A DNA stretch of 55,136 bases, counting the filler, from Porpidia crustulata (Eukaryota), in the NCBI GenBank assembly GCA_964255105.1. It is 2 parts of 2 records of this genome, joined end to end, with 100 filler letters (N's around TTAATTAATTAA, not from the genome) between each part and the next. Parts side by side here need not be neighbours in the genome. Positions count along the whole stretch, not along the records: positions 27,894 to 55,136 come from CAXUWE010000032.1; 1 more part is not named here. One strand, 5' to 3'. How positions within the stretch are numbered: position 1 is the stretch's first letter; each line of letters starts with the position of its first letter. The translations under genes were made by a program, and so were the position numbers. This document shows, in pieces, positions 27,794-53,935 of the stretch. The notes under the pieces are model-generated. The model had not been told where the DNA came from, ran no database searches, and saw only the letters and a program-made list of their open reading frames with translations.

Positions 27794-27893
27794 NNNNNNN
27801 NNNNNNNNNNNNNNNNNNNNNNNNNNNNNNNNNNNNNTTAATTAATTAANNNNNNNNNNNNNNNNNNNNNNNNNNNNNNNNNNNNNNNNNNNN
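27794..27893. other. Assembly gap with artificial linker (N44-TTAATTAATTAA-N44)
   Basis: TTAATTAATTAA at 27838-27849 sits between N runs. This is a six-frame-stop spacer used when concatenating contigs. Confidence 0.9.
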
Positions 27894-41291: not shown

Positions 41292-41706
41292 AAGTAAAGA
41301 AAGAGATGGGGAGGCGCGGTGGTGGTGTATAGCTAATAGTAAGACTGGGGAGGTGGAAATACTTGAATCGGTTTAGAGTGAAGAGTCTTAATAATGTTGG
41401 CTAAAAGCATATGTGTACGGCATAGCAAAATTACTGACACTCTGAATGACCGCGGTTTAGTTCTTGATGAGATATCTCTCCCAGTTCAATCAAGATATCT
41501 AATCCGATGTACAGACTTTCCATCATACACCACGGTCAATATCCGACTTTGAAAACTCGCCGCATCGAACACGACCACCGTCCTTTCGATAATCTGCTCA
41601 GGAAAAACTCTTTGTCTACATCTACTGACGTACCTTGCCGCAATGCGAAACAAAAAAGTCTCAGTCAAGACAAAAAAAAGGAATTTCTCGCAGGCTCTTT
41701 TGCTTC

Positions 41707-43710
41707 TTAGCCTTGGTTCCAAAGCGTCGATGCCAGGTTGGCCATGCTCGTCAGCGTGTCTGGGTGATCCACTCCGAGCTTCGTCTTGCTCGTCTCCATG
41801 ACTTGCACCTCCAGCTTTTCAGCATCATCCCACCGGCCTTGGTTCCAAAGCGTCGATGCCAGGTTGGCCATGCTCGTCAGCGTAGAAGGGTGGTTCACTC
41901 CGAGTTTCGTCTTGCGAGTCTCCATGACTTGCACCTCCAGCTTTTCAGCATCATCCCACTGGCCATTCAGGCTATGCGCCAAGCCCACCATTGTCATCCC
42001 ATTTAGAGTATCACTGTGCTCATCACCGAGAATCTTCTTTCGAACTTTCATCACATGAACCGCCATATTCTCTGTCTCTACACCTTTTCCCATTCTCAGG
42101 GCATACCATGCTGCGTTGTATAATATTGAAGCCCAGTCTAGTAAAGAATCTTGTTCCTTTGGCCTCTGTGCTGCTGCCGATTGTGCGTGTGGGAAGAGTG
42201 CCCGACACTTTTCCCAATTCTCGTACTCTCCCGTTGGAAGCTCTGCGTCAAGATTCTTGATAAATTGCCGCTTCCACCTCTCTATTTGCCCACGAGCCTC
42301 AAGCCATTTCTTCATTGCTAGCTGTACGAGTCCGTGCATTTCGAATGTTGTGTCATTAGTGTTGACGGAGATGAACGAGTAATTTCGTAGGACTGAGACA
42401 TCCTCTTCAAACCCATCGCTCATAGAAGACTGTGATGCGCTGCCTTCTTTGTCATCAATATAGTCAGTATCATCATCAACACAACTACTAGCGGTGCTCT
42501 CCCTCTGGTCTTGCCTCAAATTTATCTGCTTGCTTCGATCTTGAAGTAGAGCATCAGGGATTCCTTGCCGGTCAAAAAAGCTCATAAGCGACAGTAAATC
42601 AGCCGCTGATGGTCTGATCTTGCGGACGTGATCGAACGATATCTGCCACGTAACGATGATCGAATTCTTCGCCTCCCTATCTCGACGGAGTTGCTTGCTA
42701 TTGTAGTCTAGAAGACTCGCCCTATTACGATCGCTCTCCCGAAAGCCCTGGAGATACTTTCGCACAGAAAAGCGCGGCCTTCTCCGTAAGATATATGCAG
42801 CTGCTTGAACGATAGCGAGAGGCATGAACTCGAGTGCTACGAGAAGCTCAGCACCAACATCGCCGTCTTTACTGCCGTCGTCGACCCCTCCCAGCTTGTT
42901 CTCGAAGAGCGTCAGCGCATCTTCACTACTCATCGGTCCGATTGTGATAATGTCGCGCTGTTCAACTAGATTCAGGGCCTCATCTTCACTCCGCGTTGTT
43001 ATGAGAATCGATCCATGCGGACACTGCGGAAAGTACGACACGAGCGACCGTGGGTTCCCGCTCTCTATGCCGCTTGTTTGCCCATCTTGCCCAGTCCTCC
43101 GAGCCTCGACGAGAAAGCCAGCATCATCCACATTATCAAGTATAAGAGCCCATTTCCCTTTCTTTTCGTCGCACAGCCAGTCGTGCACCAGCTGGAAGAT
43201 ATTGGCCGTTGGATTCTGTCGTCCAGAGATCTTGACGCAATTTGCTATTTCTCGAAAGCTCTGCTCAAACCGGCGGCATTGCTTGCGTGCGCCCAGAACA
43301 CCCATGTTTCCGGCGAGCGATCTCGAGTTCGATAAGCGTATTCGATGGCGAGTTGCGATTTGCTTTACAGCGGTTAGCAATAAGTATTTACCAAAGGGAT
43401 TCCGCTTACCCGACGCCGCCCAGGCCAACAAGCGCGGTTCGGGATCCCAGGACAGCGCATTTCTGGTGAATCTGATCAAGCATCGCTCGCTCGACGAAGT
43501 CTGTGTCGCGACTGAAGGGTATGACGATCGACGGGTCCGGTGGAGTCTCTGGTCGTTGTGCGAGTCGGGACGTCATTAGCGCGGGGCCAGCTTGGACCTT
43601 TGCGACTTACCAGGAGGGGCATAGTGATGAAACTGAGTATTGACCGAACCGTGGATTATTCCAGCTTGGAAACCGGAGTTAGCCTCGCCGAAAGATTTCG
43701 CAGACGCCAT
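41707..43710 (-). pseudogene. PP-motif/NB-ARC/TPR fungal NLR (PNT1-like architecture), frameshifted and C-terminally truncated; exons 43710-43611, 43548-43410, 43362-41707
   Basis: N-terminus MASAKSFGEANSGFQAGIIHGSVNTQFH, then ETPPDPSIVIPFSRDTDFVER. Walker A GLGGVG|KS is split by intron 43409-43363. Walker B WALILDNVDD, ILITTR, FMPLAIVQAA and FEMHGLVQ follow, then 42-aa TPRs. One base is missing at ~43272 (HASNAA/RFEQ) and there is a stop at 41707 after ~2-3 TPRs. Confidence 0.88.
41710..41961 (-). repeat. Two near-identical 126-bp TPR-coding repeats
   Basis: GCCTTGGTTCCAAAGCGTCGATGCCAGGTTGGCCATGCTCGTCAGCGT recurs at 41710 and 41836; the period is 126 nt = 42 aa (WDDAEKLEVQVMET...TLTSMANLASTLWNQG). 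Confidence 0.92.
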
Positions 43711-43874
43711 TACAGTAGAGAATTTGCGATGGAGTGGTAGCAGTCGCTGCAAATGTCGATATCGTTGGCAATTCTTCAGCCGCAACGACTTGCGGCTTCC
43801 TGCCAATCAGATTAATCGGCACTTCCAGGACCTTAGCCTTAGCGCACGGTTAGATTTTCGTTCAATAAACACAA
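43711..43874. promoter_or_regulatory. Compact bidirectional promoter between NLR and HeLo-like effector
   Basis: Only 164 bp separate the two divergent ATGs (43710 on -, 43875 on +). Confidence 0.6.
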
Positions 43875-44759
43875 ATGGCTGATCCTCTTAGCATTACTAC
43901 GAGTGCCGTCGGTATTATTGTACCAGCCTTACACGGCACACGACTACTTCTAGAAGATCTGCAGCAGCTCAAAGATGCACCCAAAACCGTCAAGCGTCTA
44001 ATTGATGACGTCCACTCGGTTCATGCAACACTCGAATTGCTCCAAGGAGTGGAGGATGGAGATTGGAAGTCACTTGGTCAAAGCGTAGCAGATCAATCAA
44101 AGGCGACGATCAGCAGCTGCACGCAAGCCTGCAACCTCTTCAGGGCCGATCTACAAAAGTGGACTAGGCACTCCGAAGATGGGAAGCTGACATGGGTGGA
44201 CCGAGCAAATGTAGGATTCTTCAAGAAAGACCAAGCCAAGGCCATGTCGGACCAGCTTCAAAGCTGTAAGCTAGCCATTAATCTCATCGTTGGTGTTGCA
44301 ACCTTGTAAGCAGTTCTGGTTCTGCCTGTGTAAATACAAAACTAACCTTCTTACAGGTATAGTTCTGTCCGTAATAGCCATGTCACGGAGGAGATAAAGA
44401 AAGCGATATCTACAAAACAGGATGAGGTTAATGGTGCTATCACTACGGCAGATCGGCAGCTAGTGATAGTGGAGAACAAGCTTGAAGAGCTGAATCTCAG
44501 CAGTGATGATGACGACGCGGCTGGATCTAGTCAAGGCAAAGATGAGGTATTGCAGCAACTTGAGGAGGAAGTCAAAGGGGTGAAAGCGTCGCAGAAGCTG
44601 CTGAATGAGCTGTTGTCCAAGTCGCAGGAAGAAGTGATTGCGAAGATCGCGGGGAACCAGACTGATTCAATCACTGTGACCTTCGGTCCTCAGAACTCGG
44701 GCTTTCAAGCTGGGAACATCAACGGCGGGGTTAATGGAATGAATTTTGGAGGGAAGTAA
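43875..44759 (+). CDS. hellp: HeLo-like (HELL) cell-death effector with C-terminal PP amyloid motif (HELLP-like), 277 aa; exons 43875-44305, 44357-44759
   Basis: N-terminal MADPLSITTSAVGII...LLEDLQQLKDAPKTVKRL helical HeLo-like domain. Intron 44306-44356 (GTAAGC..ACTAAC..TACAG). C-terminus ITVTFGPQNSGFQAGNINGGVNGMNFGGK* matches the N-terminus of the adjacent NLR. Confidence 0.88.
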
Positions 44760-45072
44760 TATATGATACAGTAACATTATGAAGGCCAACTGATCTTTTT
44801 CTTGATTGAAATGATGACGTCTTTTGAGCTTCAAGGCCAAAGATTCTCAAGAGATCAATAAGTTACATGGCCCGCGTTGTGCAAGGCGTCCTTTCGCCAG
44901 TAAAGATGTTCATGTTCATAACACTCGCTCTCTAGAATCTTGCCGAATGCAAGATTCACGACAATTCTTCCTGCTGAAATAACCAATGCCGTAGGTTGCA
45001 GTGGCCGTTGTGTGTTGAACGTTCGTTATTGGGCTCCACTGTACCAAGATCATGTAAAGTGTGGCGTTCTTC

Positions 45073-47166
45073 TAGAAGTTTTCATGCACAGCCACAGGTC
45101 CACTGCCGCTCTACGAGCCGCACTTCGAGCCGCGCTTCACGTTTCTATTCCATCCCTACGTCGCAATAAGCTAGTGCTTCATGAGCGACCGTGCCAGTAA
45201 AGCCCTTGCAGAGGCTTCCCTGCCGGGAGAGCCTCGAGCATACGATGCCACATCAAAACGCAGTGGAGTGCCGCTCTCTACCCTTTTTCACCGTGCGCAT
45301 GGGCGGCACCCGAGAGAAGAGAAAGCCGAAGGCCAACAGTATCTCACTCCGTCGGAGGAGAAAGCCCTCGAAAAGTATTTGAAACTAATGGCTGATCTCG
45401 GGAATCCTGTGCGAATCAAGTACCTACCTGCCCTCGCCTTCAGTACCGCCCGCCAGCGTTCGACGAATAAAGTGATCAAGCCTCCGGGTAAGAACTGGCC
45501 TCGGGGCTTTCAAAGGCGTCATCCAGCACTCAAATCACGACGAGTAAAGGCGATGGCCTGGGAACGCCACGAGAATAACATCTATGACAAGATAACACAT
45601 TGGTTTGAGGTGATCATGGAGGTATTACAAGATCCGGCTATCCTCCCAGAAAATGTCTATAACATGGACGAGACTGGAGTCATGCTGTGCATGCTAGGCT
45701 CGATCCAGGTCCTTGTAAGTAAGGATGATCCGCGAGACTATAGAGGCGCGGGCATCAAGCGCACGATAGTTACCGCCATCGAGTGCATAAGTGCAAACGG
45801 TAGGTCTTTGCTACCAATGATTATCTGGCCAGCTACTACCCATCGAAGCAACTGGACCACGTTCCCTACCCCTAGATGGCACTATGCCTGCTCCGAATCC
45901 GGGTACACTGACTCGAAGATTAGCTTGGAGTGGCTTAAGCGCGTATTTGATCCCCAAACGAGAGAACAAGCTAATCAGAAGCCACGGGTACTGATCTGTG
46001 ATGGCTTCGGGACGCACGAGACCCTCGAAGCCTTAGAGTTTTGTTTCGAAAACAATATTATCCTATGCCGCCTCCCCTCTCATACCTCCCACAAGCTCCA
46101 GCCCTGTGACGTTGTGGTGTTTGCACGGTTGAAAGAAGCCTATCGTGACGAAGCTGATAAGCTGCTTCGAGGAGGTGCCAATACAGTTGGCAAGCAACAC
46201 TTCACCTCCTTATATAGCCCTGCAAGGGAGAAGGCGTTCACAAAGAGAAATATCACGGCTGCATGGGCGGCCTGTGGTTTGTTTCCGTTCAACCCCGACA
46301 GAGTCCTCAAAAAGACGCCGAAGCCCCCCACTCAATCAACTGTTCCGAGGGCCGATGAAATACAGGTGGGTTCTAGTCATAAGACGAAGTACCACAAACG
46401 CCTGTCACGCCAGTGTCAGCAAAGGGTCTTGCATCACTGCATAATCTGATCAAACAGGATGCTCTTACGCTTGATGAGAAGAGTATACCGCGCATACAGA
46501 GGCGTGTACAGAAGCTTGCCAACGCCGCCCAGATATTCCTTGCCGATGGTGCCCTCCTTAATGATCAAATTCAGATGTTGACTGGAATGAACAACGAAGC
46601 TAAGGTTCGCCGATCAACCAGGGCAGTCGTACTCGGGAAGGCAAAGGTAATGAGCTTTAAGGACATCGAGGTGGCACGAGCAGCGCGTGCTGCGAAGGAG
46701 GTCATCAAGGGCAAGGGGAAACGTGGTCGGAAGCGTAAGAGTGCTACGCTAGAGGCAGATGAGCCAGAGACAGAGGTGGAGGCGGTGCCAGAAGTGGCAC
46801 ATGCTGCAAAAGAGGTCATAACAGGCAAGAGGAAACATGGCCGGAAGTGTAAGAGTGCTGTACAAGAGGCAAATGAGCCGGAACCAGAGCCAGAGCAAGA
46901 AGTGGTACAGACGATCGAAGCGTCAGTGCCATGGAGAGCATCAGTGGCATGTATGCATTAAAGCGCAGATCGCGGGGAACTGGATCGCTGGGAGAAGAAT
47001 AGAATTCAAGGTGGGTTTCTTGAGGCAGGTATGCGCAGGTCTCGCGACTAATTATTGTCAGTCATTGCAATCTCGGCGCAAATAGAAGGGATAAATCACC
47101 GCTTGGTAGGGGTTTGGTAGTATAATTGTAACCGTTTTCAATGTCACTGATTACATGAAATCTCTG
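45073..47166 (+). mobile_element. pogo/Fot1-like (Tc1/mariner superfamily) DNA transposon; boundaries approximate
   Basis: Contains a transposase. Only weak, degenerate inverted ends are visible (AGAAGTTTTCATGCA at 45074-45088 vs TACATGAAATCTCTG at 47152-47166). Confidence 0.65.
45181..46961 (+). pseudogene. pogo/Fot1-type DDE transposase with one frameshift (~46380)
   Basis: HTH (GVPLSTLFHR), CENP-B-like HTH (YLTPSEEKAL...GKNWPRGFQRRHP) and DDE_1 motifs YNMDETG, VLICDGFGTH, LPSHTSHKLQPCDV. The C-terminal part continues in another frame (DEVPQTPVTPVSAKGLASL...). Confidence 0.88.
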
Positions 47167-52508: not shown

Positions 52509-52602
52509 TGGAGCTGGACACCATGCTACAGTTGGATACCTTGAACTGGTGATTGGTATCTAAAGAACGAAAAAAAGATTGAAGAGATGGAAAGTGGCTG
52601 AA

Positions 52603-52703
52603 TGGTAGAAGATGGATGGTAGAAGATGGGCGGTGGAAGATGGGTGGTAGAAGATGGGTGGTAGAAGGTGGGCGGTAGATGATGGGTGGTAGAAGGTGGG
52701 CGG
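52603..52703. repeat. Minisatellite, 14-bp unit (YGGTAGAAGRTGGG) x ~7
   Basis: Directly visible tandem array. Confidence 0.9.
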
Positions 52704-53381
52704 AAACTGTGAGAGGAAAGCTAGTGGACTCGGATGTACTCGGGACGATTCACTTTACATCTAAGATGCTCACTGGAAACGGTAGGTGGACATGCCTTGT
52801 TCGGATGTTCGTTCTCAACAGATGACGGATGTCTCATCCGGTCGCTATGGCTCGATACTATTACAGCACAAAGCGTTGACTAATTCAATAGTATACAGCA
52901 AAACCAAGGGAGGGAAAGGAAAGTCTTAAACCTCATTATGATCCATACCAGTATCGTGAAGCCTGTTGTACATAAGAACGATGCCTGCCAGTCCATGTCA
53001 ATTGTGCTCCTGAAACTGCTTGCGGGTACTTTCCATCTTACTACACAAACCTACCGTCCGATGGTTATGGTTGGGTCTTTCGCCTGATCATATTAAGGTA
53101 CAATTGAGCTGGTCTGGTGCTTATAATAAGGGTAGGACTAGTATCTCCCCATAGATCGGTCACACCCCTAGTTCGGTCATCGTACCGTCCTAGCGGTTAA
53201 CACGGACAGCGGCGCTTAAGTCGGCAATCTTAGATCGCCATTTTAGCTTTCTTATATGGCCCTCTCGACTACAGATTTACCCACCAACCTATTCTGAGCA
53301 TCATGTAACCTATCTACATTGGTACATCCCGTGGCGGGGCGGATTCCATCGAGATTCACTTACAAGCACAGATCTATCGAT

Positions 53382-53908: not shown

Positions 53909-53935
53909 NNNNNNNNNNNNNNNNNNNNNNNNNNN
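53909..53935. other. Assembly gap (27 N)
   Basis: N run. Confidence 0.99.

Follow-up and report, generated by a model that had tools for sequence, protein, structure and literature searches.

Does a pair of divergent fungal genes that share an amyloid-signalling motif still make up a working cell-death module when its receptor gene is damaged? The question is raised by a locus of Porpidia crustulata (assembly GCA_964255105.1), analysed here within a stretch of 55,136 nucleotides from that genome, hereafter called the window. Between positions 41,707 and 44,759, a gene for a NOD-like receptor (NLR) that has NB-ARC and tetratricopeptide repeat (TPR) domains lies head to head with a gene for a HeLo-like effector (Table 1). 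We interpret the pair, with a probability of about 0.65, as a HELLP/PNT1-type (PP-motif) two-gene amyloid-signalling cell-death locus of an ascomycete, with a decaying receptor and an intact effector; judged by the best matches, a Leotiomycete is the probable source. What is observed directly comprises the models of the two genes, the motif that they share, their domains, the conservation of the divergent pairing, and transcription and splicing of both in a close relative. The class is already known and widespread; this locus adds another member to it and leaves the known picture of fungal amyloid signalling unchanged. It provides a well-modelled pair of a PP-motif NLR and a HeLo-like protein from a fungus outside the Sordariales, the group in which the experiments were done, and the damaged receptor beside an intact effector makes it a small case of module decay or re-use. 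The arrangement is common and conserved, with divergent genes 164-395 bp apart and introns at the same positions. The locus also illustrates why its kind gets missed: a first exon of 100 nt holds the motif, and the name given to the effector refers to a pigment cluster.

A motif shared by receptor and effector

The receptor and effector genes are separated, from ATG to ATG, by 164 bp (43711-43874), exactly the distance given by an earlier sequence-only reading of this DNA, and this interval is presumably a shared promoter. A minus-strand ATG at 43710 opens MASAKSFGEANSGFQAGIIHGSVNTQFHH..., and the 100-nt first exon that it begins encodes MASAKSFGEANSGFQAGIIHGSVNTQFHHYAPP; the limits of this exon, 43710-43611, fit a GTAAGT donor at 43610. 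The encoded peptide of 33 aa matches the product of effector exon 2 at 13/19 identical residues (E 2e-7, BLASTP). Scored with BLOSUM62 over a fixed length of 21 aa, motif against motif gives 64. None of 5000 shuffles of the effector reached this value (mean 12.5, standard deviation 4.6, maximum 37), and among the 46,274 six-frame positions that could be scored across the window, the next best after the two motifs reaches 25. The match is therefore real, as the sequence-only reading had held, and the two peptides lie where it had placed them (43695-43627 in the NLR, 44679-44753 in the effector).

The PP motif is described, in the passages of the literature used here, as a pseudo-palindrome of about 20 residues around a conserved Q, with a GxQxG common to the mammalian RHIM (PMC5485727), and its core is given as NxGxQxGxN (PMC9815663). 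Both motifs of the window contain NSGFQAG (NxGxQxG), at residues 11-17 of the NLR and at 19-25 residues from the C-terminus of the effector, where it ends 18 residues before the last.

Conserved divergent pairing

Annotated genomes hold the same pair of genes. Effector and NLR carry adjacent locus tags in Leptodophora (ACEPPN_000486/000485), Trapelia (MMC30_009216/009217) and Coleophoma (BP6252_09459/09458), and several further pairs lie on one contig. Metagenome contigs were also scanned with the effector alignment, which kept 80 loci, 28 of them assessable (a near-full-length relative at 40% identity or more, with >600 nt upstream). An opposite-strand NB-ARC gene or PP-motif exon stands upstream in 23 of these 28 loci, those without one being L026, L042, L045, L046 and L052; L011/L012, L013/L014 and L028/L029 are duplicates, which lowers the number of independent cases. 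Where a start could be placed, in 20 metagenome loci, the two ATGs are 173-395 nt apart.

Receptor and effector motifs of one locus resemble each other more than motifs of different loci. In 19 distinct pairs, of which the window is one, cognate motifs agree at 9.42 of 17 positions compared with 8.15 after permutation (standard deviation 0.32), and none of 10,000 permutations reached the observed value, with the caveats that related loci share both motifs, which inflates the result, and that the effector-side picks at L010 and L015 are doubtful. In L027-L030, L034, L038 and L044, an NLR reading ...GLQVGQSFAPI is matched with an effector reading ...GFQIGISNGPI, and in this subfamily the two motifs look as if they co-vary. 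At L015, the effector has an in-frame stop three codons ahead of its NSGFQAG core, and the adjoining NLR exon keeps its motif intact; the effector may be broken here, which would be the reverse of the state seen in the window.

An intact effector of the HeLo-like family

The effector reading frame runs through 277 codons without interruption, and all 37 exon-1 residues that are nearly invariant in an alignment of 91 sequences are kept; judged by its sequence, the effector gene is intact in this genome. Exon 1 matches the Pfam family PF17111 at 60.6 bits (E 1.8e-16, cut-off 27.2). The best homologue, P0001, is identical to the spliced effector at 270/277 residues (seven differences) and matches the same family at 71.9 bits over residues 2-215. 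A homologue search with exon 1 as query, among proteins of 252-2000 aa, gave 91 proteins at E<=0.001 out of 606 candidates. Leotiomycetes, Dothideomycetes, Lecanoromycetes, Eurotiomycetes and Sordariomycetes account for most of them, and almost all measure 265-295 aa. GxQxG is present within the last 45 residues of 70/91; NxGxQxG occurs in 65/91 and the full palindrome in 2/91. For the homologue alignment 74 were kept and 17 dropped for odd length or a truncated or divergent C-terminus; PF17111 matches all 74 and Ses_B matches 26 of them at E<=0.1.

An AlphaFold2 model of P0001, built from the 74 sequences, is all-helical (predicted local distance difference test, pLDDT, 76.2), with residues 244-277 (about 34 residues, the motif) as coil. 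The model of the window's own effector exon 1 comprises six helices (pLDDT 80.8). Foldseek searches with the full-length and exon-1 models returned no match at E<=1e-3, and a profile search of PDB sequences with the 74 homologues gave nothing below E 1. With the exon-1 model, the four-helix bundle of MLKL came at ranks 6-7 among 48,161 chains in VIA-align (4btf_A: Z 9.9, root-mean-square deviation 2.5, 100 aligned, 17% identity; 6ux8_A: Z 9.9); the top match was IncA (Z 11.9), and the plant domains NRG1.1 CC-R (Z 9.6) and AtMLKL3 (Z 7.9) came lower down. Searches with the full-length model gave generic helical bundles only; MLKL and HeLo were both outside the top 50. Since unrelated bundles score likewise, the effector fold is compatible with a HeLo-like/four-helix-bundle relation, which stays unproven.

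The receptor and its homologues

Pfam searches of the NLR fragment 41710-43272 identified TPR_10 (105.9 bits, three stretches), TPR_12 (67.1 bits) and DUF7779 (33.7 bits); NB-ARC scored 15.6 bits on this post-frameshift fragment, below its cut-off of 23.5. The Walker A sequence GLGGVGKS is readable in the NLR, and NB-ARC (PF00931) is precomputed for many NLR homologues at 60-86% identity. With the opening 400 residues of the fragment as query, 2890 proteins were found at E<=0.001 among 8000 scored, and 120 of these were listed; 65 of the 120 are fragments or open reading frame (ORF) calls without the N-terminal region. Among the 55 listed homologues that reach it, 38 have a PP-motif N-terminus (36 by pattern; P0096 and P0180 by eye). 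Another ten begin after exon 1, some with a start such as MTSR...ERPETPP that is read from intron sequence, and these models lack the motif because of where they start. One of these ten is P0092, the best NLR match among those listed (96% identity). The forecast of the sequence-only reading that automatic annotation would go wrong at such loci is thus borne out.

The remaining listed N-termini are three HET domains, one SesA domain, one other and two that are cut short. In P0101, P0106 and P0205 a HET domain (PF06985) replaces the PP-motif exon, and the NB-ARC region is 77-78% identical to that of the window. The two kinds of N-terminus suggest, at the level of sequence, a recent swap of 'all-in-one' and amyloid-signalling architectures on one NOD/TPR chassis.

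Three lesions in the receptor gene

The receptor looks defective in this genome, a defect overlooked by the sequence-only reading. The contigs of four public runs were placed on 41500-44900 at a likeness of at least 88%, and they allow the receptor gene to be compared with that of close relatives; X2 is a DNA run, and X15 and X16 are RNA runs.

The first lesion is a frame break at 43272/43271, just after Walker A, where 1 nt is missing. The protein reads ...HASNA upstream and RFEQSF... downstream, the straight reading stops nine codons later, and NLR homologues read NAARFEQSF across the site. An extra G stands behind 43271 in X2, X15 and X16, and another contig of X16 carries an A behind 43272. 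X2 differs from the window at 45 positions in 2990 nt. Only X1, which holds 97% of words, matches the window at the frameshift.

The second lesion concerns the acceptor of intron 1, which in relatives is CAG at 43560-43558; the window reads CAC, and X2 and X15 both show G>C on the plus strand at 43558. An AG 9 nt downstream (43550-43549) would keep the frame, giving ...PPETPP... as in P0123 and P0124.

The third lesion affects the C-terminus. The TPR region consists of two 126-nt units that are 92% alike and one older unit, and the array ends in mid-repeat with ...TLWNQG, followed by TAA and unrelated DNA. The closest NLR homologues run about 100 aa further, with more units and a conserved C-terminal cap, of which tblastn found no remnant anywhere in the window. 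The Logan contig of X1 is without one 126-nt TPR unit (it skips 41710-41835) and is otherwise identical to the window over 41836-44900, a difference that reflects either repeat number or assembly collapse in the NLR array; because this contig has one unit fewer, the array is unstable in assembly.

Each lesion alone can be argued away, and the three together probably denote a decaying NLR allele, a judgement made from sequence and held at that level because the only confirming run may be non-independent. The sequence-only reading had called the locus a working cell-death module of this fungus; with a 1-nt deletion, a mutated acceptor and a TPR array without cap, that claim is unsupported as stated.

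Transcription and splicing in a close relative

An RNA contig of X16, 858 nt long, spans 43864-44772, shows 37 differences and connects 44305 with 44357 (GT..AG). In a second X16 contig, 43362 is connected with 43410 and the 47 nt between them are absent (GT..AG on the minus strand). From these contigs it follows that both genes are transcribed, and that the effector intron and NLR intron 2 are spliced as modelled, in a relative that is about 95% identical. RNA-seq had been proposed as a check of exon 43710-43611: the X16 contigs agree with the gene models at these two introns, and the joint of that exon is not seen. The X15 contig is unspliced over both NLR introns. The spliced X16 contig stops matching at 43555, at most 2 nt from the acceptor of the relatives, and 235 of its letters are unplaced; the absence of the exon 1 joint from this contig is no evidence against the splice.

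Two further observations concern the relatives. X2 has an insertion of 18 nt in the effector 5' leader at 43861/43862, 13 nt before the ATG; the RNA contigs of both runs, X15 and X16, start at 43862-43864, and the X15 contig has a loose end that resembles that insertion. Near-identical copies of the two genes (96-98% protein identity, or about half of 31-mers) are also present in lichen metagenome-assembled genomes from more than one genus, in metagenomes of air, and in sequencing runs that carry the names of several different organisms, which suggests a widespread associated or contaminating fungus and not genes of those hosts themselves.

Comparison with known systems

The closest published counterpart is the HELLP/PNT1 pair of Podospora anserina. 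In the passages of Bardin et al. (mBio 2021, PMC7885112) drawn on here, hellp (Pa_5_8070) codes for 271 aa and is interrupted by one intron of 47 bp (nt 429-475); pnt1 (Pa_5_8060) is an NB-ARC/TPR gene with a single 54-bp intron at nt 95-148 and 4-10 TPRs in wild isolates, and its product measures 971 aa in the reference strain. In both species a HeLo-like effector and an NB-ARC/TPR NLR form a two-gene cluster; the effectors are similar in length (271 aa in P. anserina, 277 aa in the window) and carry a PP-type motif at the C-terminus, and the NLRs carry one within their first ~31 residues and have a variable number of TPRs. The hellp intron corresponds to nt 432-482 of the window effector, at the same place and phase, and the pnt1 intron to nt 101-162 of the window NLR (intron 1), after the motif exon and in the same phase. 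These matching positions and phases support orthology of the gene structures. Unlike pnt1, the window NLR has a second intron inside Walker A, only three TPR units and a frameshift, and the second asparagine of the motif is at +5 in the window's family, not at +4. The HELLP/PNT1-type class put forward by the sequence-only reading fits the domain matches, the conserved divergent pairing and the published P. anserina gene structures.

The cluster of Chaetomium globosum (Daskalov et al. 2016, as cited in PMC5485727 and PMC7885112) shares the PP motif class, the HeLo-like executioner and the NB-ARC/TPR NLR; it is a three-gene cluster with a lipase-like second effector, SBP. Six-frame scoring found no third motif copy in the 55-kb window, and with exactly two copies there the window holds no third, SBP-like, motif-bearing gene.

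HET-S/NWD2 and HELLF/FNT1 of P. anserina are likewise divergent neighbours in which the N-terminal motif of the NLR templates the C-terminal prion-forming domain of an effector that also has a membrane-targeting helical domain, according to parts of PMC4344463 and PMC7885112. HET-S/NWD2 differs, in the excerpts of these sources, by its HRAM beta-solenoid repeats, with two copies in the effector, by the HeLo domain of HET-S and by the NACHT/WD architecture of NWD2. Neither HeLo (PF14479) nor HET-s_218-289 (PF11558) gave a Pfam match at E<=1 on any of the five pieces searched. The locus does not fit the HRAM class, given the lack of PF14479 and PF11558 matches and the NB-ARC/TPR architecture of the NLR. 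It does not fit the sigma class (SesA/SesB/HET-eN) either: PF17106 is not matched, and SesA reaches 13.7 bits on the effector (E 0.069), below its cut-off of 26.3 and under the stronger PF17111 match. The profile hidden Markov model check suggested alongside the sequence-only reading thus came out in part, with PF17111 above its cut-off, TPR_10 matched, NB-ARC (on a fragment) and Ses_B below their cut-offs, and no sigma or HRAM family.

In mammals, the RHIM has its GxQxG core in common with the PP motif (part of PMC5485727), and the four-helix bundle of MLKL aligns with the effector exon-1 model, no better than unrelated helical bundles do. The mammalian system differs in that the RHIM links kinases and that MLKL is activated by phosphorylation, not by templating.

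Points that weigh against the interpretation

Several observations tell against a decaying HELLP/PNT1-type locus with an intact effector. Neither motif meets the full NxGxQxGxN palindrome, since +4 is I in both and the effector has N at +3 and +5. Both also stay below the Pfam gathering score of Ses_B/PF17046 (23.2): the NLR exon-1 peptide just fails it at 22.1 bits (E 1.4e-4), and the effector C-terminus scores 13.4 bits (E 0.073). This accession is 'aka PP-motif' in the Methods of Dyrka et al. and is tied to sigma in their Introduction, in the sections of that preprint consulted (bioRxiv 10.1101/2020.01.06.895854). The likeness to HELLP/PNT1 of P. anserina and C. globosum is one to published descriptions, not a direct alignment; a homologue search from P0078 had no HELLP of either species among its matches, and the nearest Sordariales proteins found (Apodospora, Achaetomium, Podospora appendiculata) share 98-117 of 277 residues with the window effector. 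As to fold, the Z of 9.9 for MLKL lies within the range that VIA-align gives for generic helical bundles, below IncA, and the HeLo domain of HET-S is outside the top 50 of the fold searches. In the receptor gene, the exon 1-exon 2 junction was not found in the RNA contigs of X15 and X16. X1 may be the very data behind the window assembly, and for that reason the 1-nt deletion is without independent confirmation. Finally, annotations in other genomes include NLR homologues that are short or have no TPRs, so a short TPR array alone is no proof of lost function.

Is the module functional, decaying or re-used?

Some of these points lead to the first alternative, a fully functional module: the missing base would be an error of sequencing or assembly, the AG at 43550-43549 would act as acceptor, and the end after three TPR units would belong to a naturally short allele. 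The alternative acceptor is in frame, and the annotated P0123 and P0124 read ...PPETPP... likewise; the TPR number of pnt1 ranges over 4-10 units in the account of PMC7885112 used here; the array is hard to assemble, as the 126-nt difference between the X1 Logan contig and the window attests; X1 is perhaps not independent of the assembly; and coverage is low (word depth 11). Against this, the window and the X1 contig both show the deletion, with 0 differences over 41836-44900, the ...WNQG/TAA junction with non-homologous DNA is present in both assemblies and the window has no C-terminal cap, and three lesions in one gene are unlikely all to be artefacts. A fully functional module is possible, and on balance we regard it as unlikely.

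If the locus is, as we favour, a HELLP/PNT1-type pair with a decaying receptor and an intact effector, its mechanism can be sketched, by homology, from the established model of such systems. The NB-ARC/TPR receptor would oligomerise upon ligand binding, and its clustered N-terminal PP motifs would fold into amyloid. This amyloid would serve as template for the corresponding motif at the C-terminus of the HeLo-like protein, and the helical domain at the N-terminus of that protein would then move to the plasma membrane and kill the cell. Amyloid templating and membrane attack are thus predicted from the homologous systems: in P. anserina, following the relevant passages of PMC7885112, PNT1(1-31) and HELLP(214-271) form the [pi] prion, co-localise and interconvert, and these prions send full-length HELLP to the membrane, with cell death. 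As the receptor gene of the window appears to be damaged, the cis-encoded trigger has probably been lost, and the effector, if still used, would need to be fired by another PP-motif protein.

An intact HELLP-type executioner beside a decaying receptor, in a locus whose relatives keep the frame, could reflect a presence/absence polymorphism of the trigger, a het-s-like exaptation into allorecognition at an early stage, or rewiring to PP-motif NLR paralogues acting in trans; we offer this as a speculative proposal with a low chance of being right. To our knowledge, such exaptation or rewiring is undescribed for the PP family outside the Sordariales, no literature search having been aimed at decayed-receptor PP pairs.

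Taken by itself, the het-s-like exaptation would mean that the receptor is dead and that an allele or prion form of the effector serves allorecognition (vegetative incompatibility) and not receptor-triggered defence. The intact effector beside a damaged NLR speaks for it, as do the close relatives that keep the NLR frame, so that the state differs between near-identical genomes. There is also a precedent for a dead receptor beside an effector, as nwd2 is a pseudogene in all wild het-s strains (part of PMC4344463). However, the window effector retains the nearly invariant residues of its killing domain, whereas the executioner of the het-s precedent is no longer functional in the same account, and Bardin et al., in the passages cited, infer no natural incompatibility role for HELLP (PMC7885112). 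This exaptation, a sub-case of the decaying-receptor explanation and not an exclusive rival to it, seems to us very improbable.

That the effector is instead a secondary-metabolism protein whose motif matches the neighbouring gene by accident is scarcely credible: the UniRef name 'azaphilone pigments biosynthesis cluster protein L N-terminal' and PigL_N, as Pfam now calls PF17111, point that way, but another source (P0259) names this family 'Fungal N-terminal domain of STAND proteins', the window ORFs scanned match no polyketide synthase or other biosynthetic family, the motif match is far beyond chance, and pairing with a PP-motif NLR recurs in 23/28 loci.

Locus layout and surroundings

The features of the locus are collected in Table 1.

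Table 1. Gene models and other features of the receptor/effector locus, in window coordinates
Feature	Position	Strand	Description
NLR gene (NB-ARC/TPR)	43710..41707	-	three exons
NLR exon 1	43611..43710	-	33 codons + 1 nt; bears N-terminal PP-type motif SFGEANSGFQAGIIHGSVNTQFHH (43695-43627)
NLR intron 1	43549..43610	-	62 nt in this genome; GTAAGT...GCTAAT...CAG
NLR exon 2	43410..43548	-	linker (ETPPDPSIVIPFSRD...), then start of Walker A (GLGGVG)
NLR intron 2	43363..43409	-	47 nt; GTAAGC...GCTAAC...AAG; splits Walker A glycine codon before lysine
NLR exon 3	41707..43362	-	remaining NB-ARC, DUF7779, three TPR_10 units; stop 41709-41707
NLR missing-base site	43271..43272	-	reading-frame break within exon 3
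Tandem TPR units	41710..41964	-	126 nt (42 aa) each, two copies 92% alike
Intergenic region	43711..43874	.	164 bp, divergent
Effector gene (HeLo-like)	43875..44759	+	277 aa, one intron
Effector exon 1	43875..44305	+	HeLo-like (PF17111) helical domain
Effector intron	44306..44356	+	51 nt, phase 2; GTAAGC...AACTAAC...ACAG
Effector exon 2	44357..44759	+	helical stalk, then C-terminal PP-type motif TFGPQNSGFQAGNINGGVNGMNFGGK (44679-44753), stop 44757-44759

The first 26 kb of the window contain ordinary genes (Vts1, a Sec23/24-family gene, ribosomal L11, a GT41 glycosyltransferase with TPRs, and Myb), and the NLR/effector pair sits in a poorer stretch than these. Downstream of the effector, 416 nt from its stop, starts a pogo/Tc5-type transposase ORF of 424 uninterrupted codons (45175-46446, plus strand), with Pfam scores of 115.3 bits for DDE_1 and 21.3 bits for HTH_Tnp_Tc5. 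Searches found no terminal inverted repeats around this ORF, and no repeats tying the 3' flank of the NLR to other parts of the window. Runs of N at 27794-27837, 27850-27893 and 53909-53935 (44, 44 and 27 bases) are gaps or masked stretches. A 14-nt tandem repeat of about nine units, TGGTAGAAGATGGG-like and listed as seven overlapping 42-nt copies, occupies 52589-52714.

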